Source: an uncultured Anaerolineae bacterium
GTDB lineage: Bacteria; Chloroflexota; Anaerolineae; JAADDB01
DNA: 64,000 nucleotides
Direction: 5' to 3'
Assembly (NCBI GenBank): GCA_964402285.1
Contig: CAYOAZ010000010.1
Span: 8,357 to 72,356, forward strand
Positions 49,607 to 58,161 of this stretch are shown here, one piece after another; the stretch's first letter is position 1, and each line of letters opens with the position of its first letter. The notes beneath the pieces were generated by a model, which saw only the letters and a program-made list of their open reading frames with translations, was not told where the DNA came from and did not search any database. A program made the translations under genes and the position numbers.

Positions 49607-50616
49607 CAGATTTTCTCCAATTGCCAAAGGCTCCACAGGCTGAAGAGAACGACTAATCCTCCCACCAAGTACCCTGTCAGAATATCCGCTTCGGCAACGA
49701 AAATAGCCAACTCACCACTCACACCAGCCGCGAGGTAAAGAACTAACACGGCTTCCCTTTGGGTGAGCCCTATTCGGGTCAGACGGTGCGATACGTGATC
49801 CTTACCCGGCGTTGTTAGTGGGTTTAACCCCCGGCGCAGGCGGGACATAAACACTAATGTGGTGTCGAAAATGGGCACTGCCAGCACCAGAGGGGGCACT
49901 AACCAGGTTACCATGTAGACGTTATCTGGAAAGCGGAGTTTAATGCCCAGGGCAGCCAACACAAAGCCGAGAAACAAACTTCCACTGTCCCCCATGAAGA
50001 TGCGGGCTGGGTTAAAGTTGTAGATTAAGAAACCCAAACACGCGCCAAGCAGGGCTGCAGCAAGTGCTCCCACCAAATATTGTCCACTCATGGTGGCCAG
50101 AAGCGTGAAGTGCCCTGCCGCGATGGCTGCAATGCCTCCTGCGAGGCCATCCATGTTATCCATCAGGTTTAAGGCATTGGTAAGCCCGACAATCCACAGA
50201 ATCGATAGGGGGACATCTATCCACTCCGTTTGGAAAAGGTGAATTTGTACCCCGGTAGCGATAAGTAACGCCGCAGCCAGCACTTGCATGAAGAGTTTGA
50301 ACCAGGGGGAAAGCCGACTTCGGTCGTCCCATAAGCCCATTAAGGAGACCAGTGTGGCCCCTACGAAGATTCCCACTACTTGCCGAATGTAGAATCGGTC
50401 GCCGAAGAGCAGTAAGGCCAGGGCAAATGCTGCGTAAATAGCAATTCCCCCCATTAAAGGCATTGGCGTTCGGTGTAACTTGCGTGCGGAGGGCTGGTCA
50501 ACCCAGCCGAGGTGAGGCGCAAGCCGTCGGGCAATCGGGGTTGTACCTGCCGCAACCAGGAGCGCACTTAAAGCGATGAGCAGAAACGAAAGCGCGTTCA
50601 ATGAACTCATCTTCAC
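49600..50616 (-). CDS. MraY/WecA-family polyprenyl-phosphate HexNAc-1-P transferase
   Basis: [52 protein letters not shown]. Confidence 0.92.
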
Positions 50617-53600
50617 TTCCTCTTCTGCTGTAGGGCTTGCAATTCAGTAATAAGTGCCTGGAGGGCAGGTTTTTCTTTTTCCGGCGCAATGTTCAACGCC
50701 TGTTGGGCATATTGGAGCGCCAGGTCGTATTGGCCACTCTCACGGTACAAGAGTGCTAGATTACGCAAAGTGGCCAGGTCCTGAGGGGCTCGTTTGAGAA
50801 CCTCCAGGTTGTACTCTATAGCCTTTTGAATGTCCCCTTTGCGGGCAAAAACATAAGCCAAGTTGCTCAGAATCCGTATATCATTCGGGTGCCGTTTCAA
50901 TGCTTGAGTGTAATAATATTCTGCTTTATCCCAATCCTTACGAGATCGGTAGTAATCACCAAGGTAGAAATAGGTGAGATAGTACGTCTCGTCCAGTTGA
51001 AGGGAGATGTTCAATTGCTTTAGCGCTTCCTCCTCCTGCCCAGCCTGTAGGAGGGCTAGAGCATATTCGTCACGTAAACGAGCGTTGTTCGGGCTTAAAG
51101 AGACGGCTTGGGCGAAGTAGTGCACAGCTTTCTCGATGTACTGTTGTCTTAAGGTCTTATCTTGGGTCATGTTTGCTCGAGTAATGTAGAACCGGCCGAG
51201 GTTGGCTGTGTGGTCCGTGTTTAATGGGTTGAGACGTTGGGCTTTTAGGAGTACTTGTTCTGCCTCTTGAAGCAGGGTTTCCCGCACTTTAGGGTCTTGC
51301 GTGTGCTGAGCATGTTCTAAGTAGGCCTTTCCCAGGAAAAGGTAATAATAGTCCTCGTGGGGGGCTAAATTCAACACTTTCTTGTAAATGGATTCGGCTT
51401 CGGCATAGCGTCGAGCTTTGTGAAATGCTTTTGCTTGTTTGAAGTAGATATCTGCCTGGATGGGGTGGAGCGCAGGACCAAAGCCCACGTATAAAGCCAA
51501 CAATGTCCCAACGGCTACCGTTCCCCAGGTCCCCACATGGCGCGTGGTTGGAAGGGGAGTCGTTGTCCTCCCCAACACGAAGCCGATCGCTAAAACAAAC
51601 ACGAACAGCAGGATATAGTACGCCACTGGGAAACGTGCCATGTGGTCGGCAAAGGCGAGGATGGCTTCTGGATGGCGCGAGGCCTCTACTTGAAGTTGGG
51701 CGGCTCGGGCGAGAAAGTGGGATTGAATTATCGCCATGAGGAAGAATCCTCCCCAAGCCCATAAGGTTTGTACGCCGGTGCCGGCAATCCAATCACCCAG
51801 CCGGAGAATGCGGTGTCTGCGAGCCACTTCGCCGGTGAATAAGGGGGCCAGTACCAGCCACACGAACAAGAACATGTAAAACTGATGGGGGTTGGTGATG
51901 CGAATGCCGTGTTCGACACGGGTGAACAAACTGTTGGTCAAAATGCGTCCTGCCTGGTTGGTTAGCACATTTCCCGTAGGAAGGTTAATGATAAATTCGT
52001 AAGCCAGTGTGATGAAGATAAAGGCTAACAATAGGCTATAGACCCAAAATGTAGGTTCACGGAGTACAGAACGGGTCGGCGCGGGCGCGATGTTCTGCTT
52101 GGTGCGACGTTCTCGGCGCTTTCGTTTTTTGCGGGTACGAGGCGGCTCCACCGCTGGTTGCAAGCCCACGGGCTCGGGTTGTAAGGAGAGACGGTGGGTG
52201 CCCACCGCGACCAGCACGGCGGACAACATCCAGAAGTACGTGCGCGTGCTGACAATGGCGATTCCGAAATTGATTTCTACGTAGTGGGCGGCTATTGTCG
52301 CCAATAAGGCAAGAAGTAGTAAGTACCGTTCCCGCTCCTCTCGCGGGACTGCCGGTAACTGGCGCGTTAAACCAATAAACGTAACATACGCGATGAGGCC
52401 CACAATAAACCCGAAAGGCAACGAGACTCCAAAAAACCGCCAACTACCGTCCAATATCCGGGCCGTAGTGACGGCTATTAAACCGCCTCCAAACCAGAAA
52501 CCGAGAAACAGGAAGCGCTCCTTGCGTGAGGTAATCAACCCTAACCAGGTGAGTACAAAGTAGAAGATGCTGACAAACAGCCACACATACGCGGCAAAGC
52601 CTAACACGCCCGTGCGGATGAGACTGTCAAACGTTTCATTGTGTGAACGGTCAGGAGACGCGTTTCGCTTTTCAATGTGAGCCAGTTCAGGGCGATAAAA
52701 ACGGTTGTACGCAACCCACATTGCTTCTGGGCCGTACCCGATGAGCGGGCGTATTGGGTTCCACGGATCAGCGTGCATGTCTGGCGGCACATTTAGCGGT
52801 TCGTGGGGGAGGATGAGGTCCACGGCTCCTTCCCATATCAGAACGCGCACTCGACCTGTGGGATTGCGGCGGCTCACGTCTAGGATTTTGCCCAGCCGGC
52901 CCACATAGGGCATTTCGCGCAAAGGTTCCAAAGGTGTCTGTGGCAGGTTAAACACGATTAGAAAGAGGGCCCCTAAAAGGGCCAAACTGACCCACGCGCC
53001 CGCGATGGCCCGATAGTAACGCACTCGAAAAGCCAAGACTGCAAGCAAGATGAAAACGTATATGCCGACGACAAATCCGAGGAATGGCCCTCGACTTTGG
53101 CTGAAAACAAGAGCGATTGCCTGAACAGCAAAGATAAACAGGTAAATGCCCCCAAGGATCGCGTCCGTAAACCCGCGTTTTCCCTCCACATCCTGAAGAA
53201 TGCCGGCAAAGGAGCGGACAATGCGGTACCCGGTGAGAAACATCACCATGATTAAATAGGCCGCGATGAAAATCGCATTACCCATGTGTCCAGCAATACG
53301 TGTTTGGACATCTCCTCCCCAGGGCAGTGGGTCCACTCCGTAATGCTGAAGAATTCCATATAACCCCACAGGGACGCTGGTAGCCACAATGACCGTGATT
53401 AGTCGTTCCAGTTGATCGCGCTCTCGTAATTGATTGAGAGCGACCAGGAAGATGACGATGTAACTGTAGGTCGTCCACAATCCCTGCAATCGTTGATAGG
53501 AACCCCAGAGGCTGGTGCGAGGGGCAACGGAGAACAGAGTGCTGATAAGGTACGAGATAATGATGAGGAGCGTAGGTGCCACCAGGGGGATGCGGAGCAC

Positions 53601-53837
53601 ATTTCGTAAGCGCTGCAACCATGATTCACCGTCTTCTCGTCTTAGCCAGTTTGTGTCTACGGCCCATATAAGCCAGGCTAAGCCCACAATGGCAGATAAC
53701 CATCGTACCAGGGAGATTTTATCTGGCTCGAAGACTCGGTCGGTTTGTACGTTGAAGTAAAGGGGAGCCACCATTAGGGCCAACAACCAGCCGGCTTCCA
53801 TAATACCTTGTGCCAGTCGTGCGATTTTCGAGGTCAT
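50613..53837 (-). CDS. O-antigen-ligase-like (Wzy_C) polytopic membrane protein with C-terminal TPRs
   Basis: [34 protein letters not shown], then TPRs ([20 protein letters not shown]). Many TMs. Confidence 0.85.
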
Positions 53838-54192
53838 TGTCCATACTCCTTGCCGGTGTGAAGGACGTGGAGTCATCACCTGAAGTAGTTACACATCAGG
53901 CTATCAAAGGGATGTTACTCCAAGAGAACGCATCTGACAAACCGCTCTCAACGCTCCGAGGGTCGTTTGGTTCATTCTCCTGCCGTGAACGTACGGCCTG
54001 GGGTATGTGGCATTTGCTTAAAAGCGCATTTAGGCATAAGATGTGGTTGAGATGGTGGGCCATTGACCGCGCGATGGCAGTGAGCCCGATTGCACATAGA
54101 GAGGCGTATAAGTCAGTTCGGAGAATTTTACTCTAAAGAAAGGGTCGCTTGGATTGCCCGGCAACCGAGACGCCCGTAGTACGTACGATGGT

Positions 54193-54225
54193 GGCGCCAC
54201 CGGATAGCCGGTGGCGTTCTTTTTC
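54193..54225 (+). terminator. Intrinsic terminator in the 5' leader of the ECF/coaX operon (attenuator candidate)
   Basis: CGCCACCGG-atag-CCGGTGGCG followed by TTCTTTTT, ending about 20 nt before the ATG at 54245. Confidence 0.7.
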
Positions 54226-54244
54226 GCCGGGCCTGTGAAGGCCA

Positions 54245-56005
54245 ATGAAACCCATTATTCGATTTCACGATGTTTCGTACACATACCACCTGCCTAATGG
54301 GCAGAGCATTCCCGCGCTTCAGCACGTTCATCTGACCATTTATCCTGGGGAGTTCGTGGCCCTCATGGGGGCCAATGGATCAGGGAAGTCCACTTTAGTC
54401 CGCCTCATCAACGCCTTATTCGTGCCGACAGAGGGAACTGTTTGTGTCCACCAATGGAATACCCGCGAACGTCGGTGTTGGAAGGACATCCGGCGTACTG
54501 TAGCCATGGTGTTTCAAGATCCACAGTCACAGATTGTGGGCTCTACGGTGGAGGAAGATGTGGCTTTTGGGCCGCGAAATTTGGGCCTGCCCCAGTCGGT
54601 TGTTCGACAGCGCGTTGAGTGGGCGTTACGCACTGTGGGGATGTGGGATCTGCGCCAGCGTTTGCCCTTCCAACTTTCGGCTGGACAGGCACAGCGGGTC
54701 GCCCTAGCCGGGGCAATCGCGATGAAACCGGAGGTGTTAATCCTCGATGAAGCTACCGCCATGTTGGATCCCGCTGGTCGCCAAACTATCCTTAGCCTCT
54801 TAAAACACCTAAACACTTTGGGGATGACCGTTGTGCTTGTTACCCACTTCCCCGAGGAAGCATCTCAGGCCCAACGGCTTATCGTGTTACATCGTGGGAC
54901 TGTGGTTGCAGATGACGTACCTACACGTGTATTTGTGCGGTCCGAGCGTCTTGCTGAGTGGGGCATTGCCGCTCCAGTTCCTGGGCAAATCGCGCGTCGA
55001 TTGCATACCAAGATGCCGTGCATTTCACCGGCGATATTGGATGTCCGGACCTTAACTCGCGCGTTGGAGGAATGTTTGATTACTTCTCCCCGCCAGTCTC
55101 TTTCAAATCCTTCTCCGAGACCTTCACGTGTTGGGCAGGCGCGATCTACGTTTATAAAGACACGCGATCTTTGGCATGTGTATATGGCCCAAACCCCTTT
55201 AGAAGTCACAGCCTTGAGAGGCGTAACCCTTACTGTGCAGCGTGGCGCGTCTGTTGGCTTAATGGGAACAACTGGTTCGGGAAAGAGCACCCTCATGCAG
55301 CATTTGAACGGATTGCTCTTTCCACATCGAGGTGAGGTGTGGATAGATGGTCAGGAGATTCGCCAATGGCAGGACCGCTTGCCCGCGCTTCGTCGGACAG
55401 TTGCTATGCTGTTTCAGCGGGCTGAGGACCAGTTATTTGAACGTTTTGTGGGTGATGATGTAGCAGCCGGTCTTCGACCCCTGCGTCTCCCGCGGGAGAT
55501 ACTCAGGGAGCGTGTGCGATGGGCTATGGAAACGGTGGGCCTGGAGTTTGAAGCGTATAAGGACCGCCCGGTGTACAGTTTAAGCGGTGGTGAAAAACGA
55601 AAAGTGGCATTAGCCGGTGTATTGGTGTTGGAGCCTCAAGGGGTTATTTTGGATGAACCCACAGTTGGTCTGGACCCGCGTTCTCGTCAGGACTTGATGA
55701 TGTATTTGGAAAAGTGGCACACGAGAGGAGACGTCACACTTATCTACTCCTCTCATTCTCCTGAAGAGATAGCCCACATGACTGACCAGATAGTCATTAT
55801 GCAGAATGGCGTGGTGGCTATTTCAGGGGAGACACATGAGGTGCTATATGACGTCGAAAGAATTAAGGCGTTGGGATTGGAGGTTCCCGTTGTTGTAGAA
55901 CTAGTCCTCGGTTTAAGGTCGAGGGGGATCCCTCTGCGGGGAAATCCAATTACAATGAACGAATTCGTGAATACAATTACACGATTCTTTCGCGGAAGGG
56001 GCTGA
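54245..56005 (+). CDS. ECF transporter ATPase, fused EcfA-EcfA'
   Basis: Two ABC cassettes: GANGSGKS/LSAGQ/LILDEA and GTTGSGKS/LSGGEKRK/VILDEP. Q-loops VFQDP and LFQRAE. Confidence 0.92.
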   Translation: MKPIIRFHDVSYTYHLPNGQSIPALQHVHLTIYPGEFVALMGANGSGKSTLVRLINALFVPTEGTVCVHQWNTRERRCWKDIRRTVAMVFQDPQSQIVGSTVEEDVAFGPRNLGLPQSVVRQRVEWALRTVGMWDLRQRLPFQLSAGQAQRVALAGAIAMKPEVLILDEATAMLDPAGRQTILSLLKHLNTLGMTVVLVTHFPEEASQAQRLIVLHRGTVVADDVPTRVFVRSERLAEWGIAAPVPGQIARRLHTKMPCISPAILDVRTLTRALEECLITSPRQSLSNPSPRPSRVGQARSTFIKTRDLWHVYMAQTPLEVTALRGVTLTVQRGASVGLMGTTGSGKSTLMQHLNGLLFPHRGEVWIDGQEIRQWQDRLPALRRTVAMLFQRAEDQLFERFVGDDVAAGLRPLRLPREILRERVRWAMETVGLEFEAYKDRPVYSLSGGEKRKVALAGVLVLEPQGVILDEPTVGLDPRSRQDLMMYLEKWHTRGDVTLIYSSHSPEEIAHMTDQIVIMQNGVVAISGETHEVLYDVERIKALGLEVPVVVELVLGLRSRGIPLRGNPITMNEFVNTITRFFRGRG

Positions 56006-56008
56006 AAC

Positions 56009-56806
56009 GTGGAGAACGTTGAATTTCTTCGGCGTGTAATTATCGGCATTTACCTTCCGACCAACTCCTGGCTTCACCGGTTGGATGTTCGAGCGAAACT
56101 TTTTGTGTTTTTGGTAGGTACCGGGTATGCCACATTTGTTTCCTCTTTGCGGGCTCAAGGCGTTTTTCTGATATGGGTGCTAATGCTTATGCACACGGCA
56201 CGGGTGCCTTGGCGTTTTGCGTGGAACGGTCTGAAAGCAGCATTACCATTTCTGTTCGCTTTCGGGGTGTTGGATTTATTGTTTGCCCCTTCTTCTCCTA
56301 AAGGTGTTATTTGTACTCCATGGTGGACCCTCGGTAGTTGGCATCTTACTAATTGTGCGGTTGAAACGGTGGGGTTGCTATTTTTGCGTTTTACTGTGTT
56401 GATGTTGTGGACGAGCCTGTTGACGATAACCACAACAGTGGTGGAATTAGGACGAGGGCTTGAATGGTACTTATCCCCATTAAACCGGTGGGGCATTCCA
56501 GGGTATGAAGTTTCTCTTATTTTGGCCCTTACTTTTCGTTTCGTTCCCACATTTGCTTTAGAAGCCGAGCGTTTGGTCAAATCTCAGATGGCTCGTGGCA
56601 TAGATTTGGGTGAAGGCGGGCGATGGCGCTTCTGGCGCCGAGTTCGGGCTATGATGCCCATGCTCATTCCGTTTTTCCTCATGGCTCTTCGTCGGGCAGA
56701 GGAAATGGCTGAGGCCATGGAGGCGCGAGGTTTTATTGGAGTTACAGATACTGCCGCTGCAGAAAATCTTTTACCTCAGAAAGGAGGTGTCCGGCATGAA
56801 TGCTAA
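56009..56806 (+). CDS. ecfT: ECF transporter T component
   Basis: SWLHRLDVRAK, LTFRFVP, SQMARG, AEAMEARG. Confidence 0.92.
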   Translation: MENVEFLRRVIIGIYLPTNSWLHRLDVRAKLFVFLVGTGYATFVSSLRAQGVFLIWVLMLMHTARVPWRFAWNGLKAALPFLFAFGVLDLLFAPSSPKGVICTPWWTLGSWHLTNCAVETVGLLFLRFTVLMLWTSLLTITTTVVELGRGLEWYLSPLNRWGIPGYEVSLILALTFRFVPTFALEAERLVKSQMARGIDLGEGGRWRFWRRVRAMMPMLIPFFLMALRRAEEMAEAMEARGFIGVTDTAAAENLLPQKGGVRHEC

Positions 56807-57338
56807 ATTTTCGGCCCGTACCATTACTGTAACCGCAGCCCTTTCTGCTGTGGCTGTGGTGTTGGGGGCAACCCAATGGGGGTTTATTCCCGTTCCAACG
56901 CCTGCTGGCCATGCTACGATTATGCACGTACCAGTGATTCTCGGCGCGATTCTTGAGGGACCGATGGTAGGGGCTATTATAGGAGCAGTTTTTGGCCTCT
57001 ACAGCTTCTTAGATGCCACGTTGCCTATATTTAAAGATCCACTGGTTGCTATTCTTCCTCGCTTGTTTATCGGTCCGATGGCTTACTATGCCTATATGTT
57101 GACCCGGCGCTGGGGGGAATCTGTGGCTTCAGGTATGGCAGCGGTCGTGGGGACTGTAACCAATACGGTGTTAGTATTGGGTATGATTGTGATCCGAGGA
57201 TACTTGGACGCGAGAACGGCATGGGCCGTGGGTGTGACGCACGGCCTCCCAGAAATTATAGTAGCCGCACTCATTGTTATTCCAGTTGTGCTAATGTGGA
57301 AACGCGTGGAATTTGGCCGTGGTCGGTCACGCCTGTGA
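56796..57338 (+). CDS. ECF S component, pantothenate (PanT-like)
   Basis: GFIPVP...ATIMHVPVILGAILEGP...FGLYSF...DPLVAILPRLFIG...GTVTNTVLVLG. Directly upstream of coaX. Confidence 0.8.
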   Translation: MNAKFSARTITVTAALSAVAVVLGATQWGFIPVPTPAGHATIMHVPVILGAILEGPMVGAIIGAVFGLYSFLDATLPIFKDPLVAILPRLFIGPMAYYAYMLTRRWGESVASGMAAVVGTVTNTVLVLGMIVIRGYLDARTAWAVGVTHGLPEIIVAALIVIPVVLMWKRVEFGRGRSRL

Positions 57339-57384
57339 TTTCAAAGCAAACATGATTGGTTTATTAATAACGAGGAGGGTGTTT

Positions 57385-58161
57385 ATGTTGTTAACCGTGG
57401 ATATTGGAAACAGCGAAGTTACTCTGGGTGTCTATACTGACTCTCAATGGCAAGCCCGTTGGCGATTACGAACGGTGGTTCATAGGACACCCGATGAATA
57501 CGCGTTGCTATTGAAGGGACTTTTTCGAGAGGCAGGCATTCCCCTTGAAAGAGTAAGATATGTGGGCTTAGCCAGTGTCGTTCCTCCGGTGACGGATACG
57601 TTCGTAGATGTGATTCAACGACATTTGCGTGCTGAATTGCTCGTGGTGCGTCCAGGCGTTCGTACTGGATTGCGTATTCGGGCTGACAACCCTGCAGAGG
57701 TGGGTGCGGACCTCATTGTTAACGCTGTAGCTGCATATGAACGATTTAAAGATGCGTGCATCATTGTGAGTTTGGGGACTGCAACCGTGTTTACCGCGGT
57801 CTCGGCTGGACGGGATTTCTTGGGAGCGGCTATTGCTCCAGGATTGCGTATGGCTGCTCGTGCTCTTTCGGAGCAGACAGCTCAATTACCGGGTATTCAA
57901 CTCGCTGCTCCGCCCGTAGTTATTGGTCGCAACACGGTTCACGCTATGCAGAGCGGCTTGGTGTGGGGGTATGTAGCTATGGTGGAGGGGATGGTGGCTC
58001 GTTTTCGGAAAGAGATGCAGAGGGAGGCGAACGTCATTGCCACGGGAGGGTTGGCTCACTTAATTGCACCTCACACGTCAGTGATTGACGTTGTAGATCC
58101 ATGGTTGACTCTTGAAGGACTGCGCATATTGGTGGAACGTAATCTCCTTTCTGGTCGCTAA
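57385..58161 (+). CDS. coaX: Type III pantothenate kinase
   Basis: LTVDIGNS, SVVP, VGADLIVN, SLGTAT, GRNTVHAMQSG, ATGG, LTLEGL. Confidence 0.96.
   Translation: MLLTVDIGNSEVTLGVYTDSQWQARWRLRTVVHRTPDEYALLLKGLFREAGIPLERVRYVGLASVVPPVTDTFVDVIQRHLRAELLVVRPGVRTGLRIRADNPAEVGADLIVNAVAAYERFKDACIIVSLGTATVFTAVSAGRDFLGAAIAPGLRMAARALSEQTAQLPGIQLAAPPVVIGRNTVHAMQSGLVWGYVAMVEGMVARFRKEMQREANVIATGGLAHLIAPHTSVIDVVDPWLTLEGLRILVERNLLSGR

Follow-up and report, generated by a model that had tools for sequence, protein, structure and literature searches.

The closest described relative of the element studied here is the orphan pan motif, which was reported from three phyla, Chloroflexi included, with panB, panC and the aspartate decarboxylase gene panD as its gene contexts (Weinberg et al. 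2010, Genome Biol 11:R31, PMC2864571). Most pan RNAs are tandem, those of the delta-proteobacteria being single-hairpin (PMC2864571), and no binding was reported when a single-hairpin pan RNA of Geobacter was submitted to in-line probing with pantothenate, CoA or beta-alanine at 1 mM (PMC2864571). CoA is one of the few universal cofactors for which no RNA sensor is known, a gap described as a notable blind spot in a 2022 review. The literature searched still reports no CoA riboswitch, in agreement with the initial annotation of this DNA, which stated that no CoA or pantothenate riboswitch is known to be validated. Our literature search for a pan effector or for a link of pan to ECF transporters yielded nothing beyond the 2010 paper, and no paper connecting pan with coaX was found. 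B. subtilis has a pan RNA as well, in its panB leader.

The leader analysed here lies in a stretch of 64,000 nucleotides (the window) from an uncultured Anaerolineae bacterium, whose genome assembly of 3.1 Mb is 96.7% complete. It resembles the pan family (Rfam RF01749) in its two bulged adenines per stem, its tandem hairpins, its signature letters and its location in the 5' leader of pantothenate/CoA genes. It differs from the published pan RNAs in that the genes located downstream encode an ECF importer and CoaX instead of being panB, panC or panD, and in that no panB, panC or coaBC was detected in the host genome.

Other regulatory leaders share some of these properties. As in terminating riboswitches and comparable leaders, a conserved structured element is followed by an intrinsic terminator right before the first gene, and the 3' strand of the element is, class-wide, complementary to the 5' arm of the terminator. 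Unlike in terminating riboswitches, the alternative helix is not evident in the window and the putative sensor consists of two simple hairpins rather than of a multi-helix junction. Guanidine-II RNAs (mini-ykkC) are made of two small tandem hairpins joined by a variable linker, and pan shares this layout. The resemblance is one of layout only: the conserved letters of guanidine-II RNAs are located in loops (ACGR) that dock on each other, whereas the loops of pan vary freely and conservation is found in its stem and its bulged A residues. The attenuators controlled by PyrR, TRAP and HutP also have repeated RNA sites upstream of a terminator, with a symmetry that suits an oligomeric protein, but the sequences of the pan sites are unrelated to theirs.

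Organization of the leader and of the operon

The initial annotation had proposed that a structured leader precedes a pantothenate uptake/CoA operon. A conserved, structured leader with an intrinsic terminator was indeed found before genes for the uptake and phosphorylation of a CoA precursor, and its features are listed in Table 1. The interval flagged at first (54135-54244) leaves out hairpin 1 and the upstream promoter-like element.

Table 1. Features of the ecfA1A2-ecfT-S-coaX locus (positions in the window)
Feature	Position	Strand	Description
Promoter-like element	54014-54042	+	TTGCTT (54014-54019), 17-nt spacer, TAAGAT (54037-54042); consensus match only
pan hairpin 1	54059-54085	+	Covered by covariance model R1
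Inter-hairpin linker	54086-54141	+	Not conserved; 3' end A-rich
pan hairpin 2	54142-54175	+	Stem-loop of the initial annotation; core 54146-54172, apex UUGC-CCG-GCAA
Intrinsic terminator	54193-54224	+	Stem 54193-54218, core 54195-54216, loop AUAG
Post-terminator segment	54226-54243	+	GCCGGGC 54226-54232; GGCC/GGCC hairpin 54230-54243 with weak Shine-Dalgarno GAAGG
Fused ecfA1-ecfA2, 586 aa	54245-56005	+	Two ECF ATPase domains; ABC_tran twice; TIGR04520 518 bits, TIGR04521 537 bits
ecfT, transmembrane T component	56009-56806	+	PF02361 CbiQ, 1.6e-31
S component, PanT-like	56736-57338	+	PF12822, 1.3e-25; no NCBIfam name; start codon uncertain
coaX, type III pantothenate kinase	57313-58161	+	Only PanK-like gene in the genome

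The bulged stem-loop described by the initial annotation, which is hairpin 2, could be read straight from the sequence. The outer pairs of its core are C46-G72 and G47-C71 (numbered by the last two digits of their positions), after which A54170 is bulged. The inner pairs extend from C48-G69 to G52-C65 and, past the bulged A54153, from U54-A64 to C57-G61, leaving a loop of 3 nt (54158-54160). The base of the hairpin is extended by G42-C75, G43-C74 and G44-C73, with U45 bulged. The U-tailed terminator that had been placed before the first ATG was also found by our terminator scan; its stem contains 11 pairs, 8 of which are G-C, and is followed by TTCTTTTT, with a U tract at 54217-54224, about 20 nt (19-20) from the ATG of ecfA (54245). 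Its folding energy is -20.1 kcal/mol, and the 151-nt leader as a whole folds more stably than shuffled sequences (z = -2.7).

A BLAST comparison with relatives showed that the 34 nt of hairpin 2 have 91% identity in two other genera of the same family, in which the sequence of the terminator is different from that of the window. In genomes G004 and G005, hairpin 2 is kept and a terminator of a different sequence is located at the same place. The weaker BLAST matches of the hairpin coincided with RF01749 matches in genomes of other families (G013, G016 and G018).

Hairpin 1 has a comparable build (GC/CAUUG/bulged A54066/CC, a 7-nt loop, then GG/CAGUG/bulged A54083/GC), and a compensatory change from A-U to G-C was found in that of genome G001, which is of the same genus. 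The linker of the window, 59 nt in the model alignment, is among the longest, the class median being 29 nt and the range 15 to 61. In G005 and G095, hairpin 1 is located as far as ~190 nt upstream of hairpin 2 (loci L110, with hairpins at ~824-853 and 1040-1073, and L109, on the reverse strand); the two hairpins therefore need not adjoin in sequence.

The transcript is predicted to start near 54049-54051, downstream of a promoter-like element that ends 16 nt before hairpin 1. The same layout was found in G001 (TTGCAC-17-TAAGAT), and a TTGnnn-17-TAnnnT element is located 6-34 nt before hairpin 1 in five of seven relatives of the subfamily. The gene located upstream is divergent, and the intergenic region before ecfA is roughly 365-400 nt long. 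The 1088-aa product of this divergent gene (50613-53879, - strand) combines an O-antigen ligase (Wzy_C) domain with a long TPR array at its C terminus; the ATG near 53842 is probably where its translation begins. That the operon promoter might lie downstream of the hairpin, a possibility raised by the initial annotation as one that would refute its proposal, does not agree with the upstream location of the promoter-like element, nor with the distance of only ~19 nt from the U tract to the ATG, too short for a promoter of the operon after the terminator. As the region between the hairpins gave no promoter either, the motif and the terminator should belong to the leader of the operon.

Two other candidates were examined in this region and rejected. 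A promoter between the hairpins could have been made of TTGCAC (54090) and TATAAG (54107), but these are just 11 nt apart and there was no promoter match on the + strand. A leader peptide could have been encoded from an ATG at 54041 (31 codons) or 54005 (43 codons) to the TAA at 54136, overlapping hairpin 1; it was ruled out, as the ORF of G001 has another length and another sequence, and as the putative -10 box contains the ATG.

Relationship with the pan family

The initial annotation had pointed to the pan motif and had suggested a cmsearch with the Rfam model as a check. The result of this check was poor. A search of 53000-55000 with Rfam at E <= 10 returned no pan or riboswitch match, and in short searches RF01749 matched hairpin 2 alone, at 12.0 bits (E 9.7) and at 15.2 bits (E 1.9), with 54146-54172 aligned to positions 61-87 of the model. 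Such scores of 12-15 bits are far under the gathering cut-off of RF01749 (36.2 bits), which is an operational limit and not a structural one. The idea would thus have been wrongly rejected with the Rfam model alone. The low score is likely due to the 59-nt spacer and to a diverged hairpin 1; hairpin 2 shares all of the conserved letters (GC.UGGAU...ACCG.GAC) of the second hairpin of RF01749.

To build a covariance model, R1, we used 15 pan RNAs from other families of Anaerolineae and excluded the family of the window. These training RNAs were located with RF01749, and six of them pass the Rfam cut-off. R1 matched the window at 54058-54177 over all of its 90 positions, with a score of 38.8 bits (E 2.4e-7, or 1e-5 for the whole genome), and this was the sole match in the window and in the 3.1-Mb genome. 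The alignment with R1 showed the tandem two-hairpin arrangement in the window, and the pan hairpins of relatives have the same build (GC/CACCG/A/CC...GG/CGGUG/A/GC and CG/CUUGG/A/UC...GA/CCGAG/A/CG). The element thus adds a member to an orphan family that is already known, pan, and is not a new class. The pointer of the initial annotation was therefore correct, since the hairpin that it had flagged is itself a pan hairpin, with both of the invariant bulged A residues.

Covariation, which the initial annotation had suggested examining in ecf-panT-coaX leaders, was strong. In the training set of R1, 97.5% of the cells were paired and 11 pairs showed double changes, and none of 500 shuffles was as good. 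Among the 86 leaders found in Anaerolineae, 96.8% of the cells were paired and double changes were present in 16 of the 21 pairs, while sliding the partner columns lowered pairing to 30-47%. Hairpin 1 covaries freely, with double changes at all nine pairs of its helix, whereas hairpin 2 is nearly invariant. The columns of the bulged adenines contained an A in all of the aligned leaders (86/86, 86/86, 77/77 and 82/82), and a conserved U-G pair was found in 69 of the 86. This U-G pair, together with the strict orientation of the motif, indicates that the structure acts as RNA and not as a DNA operator.

Distribution of pan leaders in Anaerolineae

With R1, pan was detected in 83 of the 151 genomes of Anaerolineae searched, mostly as a single copy. 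In the first 61 genomes, which are included in these 151, the Rfam model yielded 15 matches at E <= 1, and 5 genomes had a score that passed its cut-off. Scans for further close relatives found six loci in genome contigs and two in metagenome contigs, mostly copies of genomes already in the set.

The gene located first after the 86 leaders was ecfA in 42 cases, panB in 15, the gene of a family-5 (peptide/nickel type) ABC binding protein in 11, that of an S component in 7, panG or panD-panG in 5, coaX in 2, that of a PhnD-like binding protein in 2 and that of an S58 peptidase in 1, the remaining sequence being too short to tell. ECF transporter operons were found behind 49 of the 86 leaders. 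The association with pantothenate/CoA genes held for 85 of the 86 leaders, in more than 40 families, and the motif invariably preceded these genes in the same orientation. The presence of pan before ECF genes and coaX is a gene context that is absent from the literature searched.

The context of pan was also compared with the presence of CoaB. When pan precedes synthesis genes, CoaB was present in 20 of 20 genomes; when it precedes transporter operons (ECF or family-5 ABC), CoaB was present in 23 genomes and absent from 35 (Fisher p = 6e-7, uncorrected for phylogeny).

Among the genomes in which pan precedes a family-5 binding protein (eleven leaders: L023, L026, L029, L044, L055, L060, L063, L082, L084, L100 and L101), eight have no CoaB, and these ABC systems could be candidate importers of pantetheine or pantethine. 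Pan was also observed before genes for an S58 (DmpA/BapA-like) aminopeptidase, possibly a source of beta-alanine, and for PhnD-like binding proteins (L037:1735-2739, L028:530-1435 and L108). Finally, coaBC is located 2-5 kb downstream of pan and on the same strand on seven contigs (G037:C496, G145:C276, G121:C2, G129:C91, G090:C9, G081:C1 and G092:C1); because of this location, the operon controlled by pan probably reaches coaBC there.

CoA metabolism of the host

Profile searches of the host genome (PF02548 and PF02569 among the models used) found no panB above cut-off and no panC. No CoaB domain or CoaBC was found in the genome with PF04127, TIGR00521 or the CoaBC protein of a relative. No type I kinase was found above cut-off in the genome (45.6 bits versus 235), and the type II kinase gave zero matches, a result that is uninformative because the control genomes gave none either. 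CoaX was found once, with a start codon that is probably about 24 codons further in than annotated, and coaD and coaE are present. Within the family of the window, CoaB was absent from the four genomes in which pan precedes ECF and coaX genes (4/4), and CoaBC was present in the three near-complete genomes that have no pan (3/3).

The host therefore appears incapable of making vitamin B5 or of using it in the normal way. Its genotype matches the 'pantetheine shunt' described for gut bacteria. Selectivity for pantothenate has, however, been reported for the CoaX family; either the CoaX of the window accepts pantetheine or another enzyme replaces CoaBC. The probable function of the operon is the salvage of a late precursor, for example pantetheine. 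In the 'pantothenate uptake/CoA operon' of the initial annotation, the assignment of the genes to the uptake and phosphorylation of a CoA precursor stands, while pantothenate as the cargo is doubtful because the genome has no detectable CoaBC.

Terminator and competing pairings

A terminator-like hairpin was found within 140 nt of the motif in 65 of the 86 leaders, and in 58 under a strict filter. Class-wide, the 3' strand of hairpin 2 (CCGAGACGGC) is complementary to the 5' arm of the terminator, which is often GCCUCUCGG; this pairing, with CCGAGACGG as the 3' strand of hairpin 2, is strong in leaders such as locus L024. The mean energy of the duplex formed by the 3' strand of hairpin 2 was -8.7 kcal/mol with the 5' arm of the terminator and -5.7 kcal/mol with its 3' arm (Wilcoxon p = 5e-7, n = 58; p = 8e-6 for the 42 distinct arms). 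Such a bias fits the signature of an antiterminator, and an antiterminator role would also explain why hairpin 2 is nearly invariant while hairpin 1 covaries freely. The antiterminator was the minimum-energy fold of the nascent RNA in just 16 of the 58 leaders.

The window leader itself showed no bias toward the 5' arm (-9.3 kcal/mol, versus -9.5 kcal/mol for the 3' arm). The fold with both hairpin 2 and the terminator has an energy of -38.2 kcal/mol, compared to -29.7 kcal/mol for the best local alternative that was written, and the terminator still forms in folding when the 5' strand of hairpin 2 is blocked. A local antiterminator between CGCC (54171-54174) and GGCG (54193-54196) was rejected, as it is 8.5 kcal/mol worse than hairpin 2 with the terminator. 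A long-range pairing of 54054-54065, in the 5' flank and the 5' strand of hairpin 1, with 54185-54200 (-20.1 kcal/mol) is present in the minimum-energy fold, but it was not retained because G001 has no equivalent. The minimum-energy fold also contains a pairing between AAAGAA (54136-54141) and its exact complement UUCUUU (54217-54222) in the U tract.

The initial annotation had noted an upstream copy of GGTGGCG that could disrupt the 5' arm of the terminator. There are two copies, at 54190-54196 and 54210-54216, and the role of the upstream one as an anti-terminator is sterically impossible: it overlaps its partner CGCCACC (54195-54201) by 2 nt, so that it cannot fold back, GGTGGCGCCACC being a loop-less palindrome. 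Nor is it conserved, G001 having GGGCGCG instead.

Another pairing involves the apex of hairpin 2 (GCCCGGC, 54156-54162) and the complementary GCCGGGC that stands directly after the U tract (Table 1). The energy of this duplex is -17.3 kcal/mol, a value equalled by 0.2% of shuffles, and matched changes were found in G005 (CCCAGCAA/UUGCUGGG) and in G081 (CCCUGCA/UGCAGGG), with G004 as an exception. Class-wide, the apex/post-terminator pairing gave no signal (mean z 0.01). The pairing of the apex with a segment that overlaps the small hairpin around the weak ribosome site tentatively suggests translational control in the subfamily of the window.

Discussion

Our main reading, to which we give a probability of about 0.7, is that the leader of the ecfA1A2-ecfT-S-coaX operon contains a complete tandem pan RNA and a terminator and acts as a cis-regulatory attenuator. 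It starts from what is observed: the motif, its homology with pan RNAs, its covariation, the terminator and the gene context. According to the mechanism that we propose, an effector reporting coenzyme A status would bind both of the bulged-A hairpins and keep them folded. With the hairpins locked, the terminator would form and transcription would halt before ecfA, leaving the operon off; when the effector is absent, part of hairpin 2 would re-pair with the downstream sequence and the operon would be read through. We infer the binding of the effector, the direction of the regulation and, for the window leader, the competing helix. The initial annotation had likewise proposed an attenuator, one that might sense pantothenate or CoA either directly or by way of a protein.

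A dimeric RNA-binding protein seems to us a somewhat likelier effector than a directly bound small molecule. Were a metabolite the effector, 4'-phosphopantetheine, dephospho-CoA or CoA would suit the gene contexts better than pantothenate, because these three are the metabolites common to all of the contexts of pan.

Attenuation by a protein is a plausible explanation that we hold at somewhat less than even odds; a dimeric or tetrameric CoA-sensing RNA-binding protein would bind both hairpins, in the manner of PyrR, TRAP or HutP. The two-fold pseudo-symmetry of each hairpin (CNNNG-A on both strands) and the presence of two copies with a freely variable spacer fit an oligomeric protein, and the inner pairs of hairpin 1 are free while its bulge-adjacent pairs and bulged A residues are fixed, as expected if the shape and a few bases are recognised. 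A dimeric protein was proposed by Weinberg et al. (2010, PMC2864571), and the literature searched reports no small-molecule binding in 16 years. However, no regulator gene was seen to be conserved in the neighbourhood of the 86 loci, no candidate protein has been named so far, and such a protein would need a wide distribution since pan spans three phyla. A direct riboswitch is more doubtful. The two bulged-A hairpins would then be the aptamer for a late metabolite of the CoA pathway (4'-phosphopantetheine, dephospho-CoA, CoA or an acyl-CoA), the binding of which would favour the terminator. The invariance of the unpaired A residues, the near-invariance of hairpin 2, the terminator present as an expression platform in most leaders and a complementarity bias typical of riboswitch platforms all argue for this explanation, as does a regulon that extends from panB to coaBC-coaX and includes salvage by genomes devoid of CoaBC, so that the shared metabolites are those from 4'-phosphopantetheine onward. 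There is also a vacancy, since no CoA riboswitch is known. Tandem small hairpins can form a riboswitch, as in guanidine-II, and type III kinases are reportedly insensitive to feedback by CoA, which would leave a need for another control point. Yet the structure is very small and simple, its conserved letters are mostly base-paired and the spacer between the hairpins varies from 15 to ~190 nt; moreover, the original authors favoured a protein, and CoA, pantothenate and beta-alanine gave no reported binding, though on a single-hairpin RNA (PMC2864571).

The leader could also have no regulatory role, as a constitutive 5' stabiliser followed by a leaky terminator or as the 3'-terminal part of an independent small RNA. 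The strength of the terminator and the lack of a convincing competing helix in the window would agree with this, but we consider it very improbable given the strict link of the motif with pantothenate/CoA genes (85 of 86 leaders, more than 40 families), its constant location upstream of them on the same strand, the complementarity bias of the 5' arm of the terminator and the ~19 nt between the U tract and the ATG, which leave the operon without a promoter of its own.

A bolder proposal, which we judge unlikely, is that pan is the missing riboswitch for CoA status, that it binds 4'-phosphopantetheine or dephospho-CoA and that in the subfamily of the window the RNA may act twice. These two ligands are put forward because they are shared by the de novo producers (panB) and by the salvagers devoid of CoaBC (ECF-S-coaX), and neither was among the compounds tested in 2010. 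The RNA would act through the terminator first, and then through the pairing of the apex with the segment that would otherwise occlude the ribosome site.

As the only widespread RNA tied to the CoA pathway, the orphan pan motif offers the most promising route to an RNA-linked sensor of CoA status. Many of the pan leaders of Anaerolineae are missed by Rfam. The complementarity between the 3' strand of hairpin 2 and the 5' arm of the terminator provides a testable design rule for these leaders. Their regulon is wider than published, as it takes in coaX, the importers of the ECF and family-5 ABC types and, for some genomes, coaBC as well. Because the motif persists in genomes without panB, panC and coaBC, the plausible signals are narrowed to late intermediates of the pathway or to a protein that reads them.
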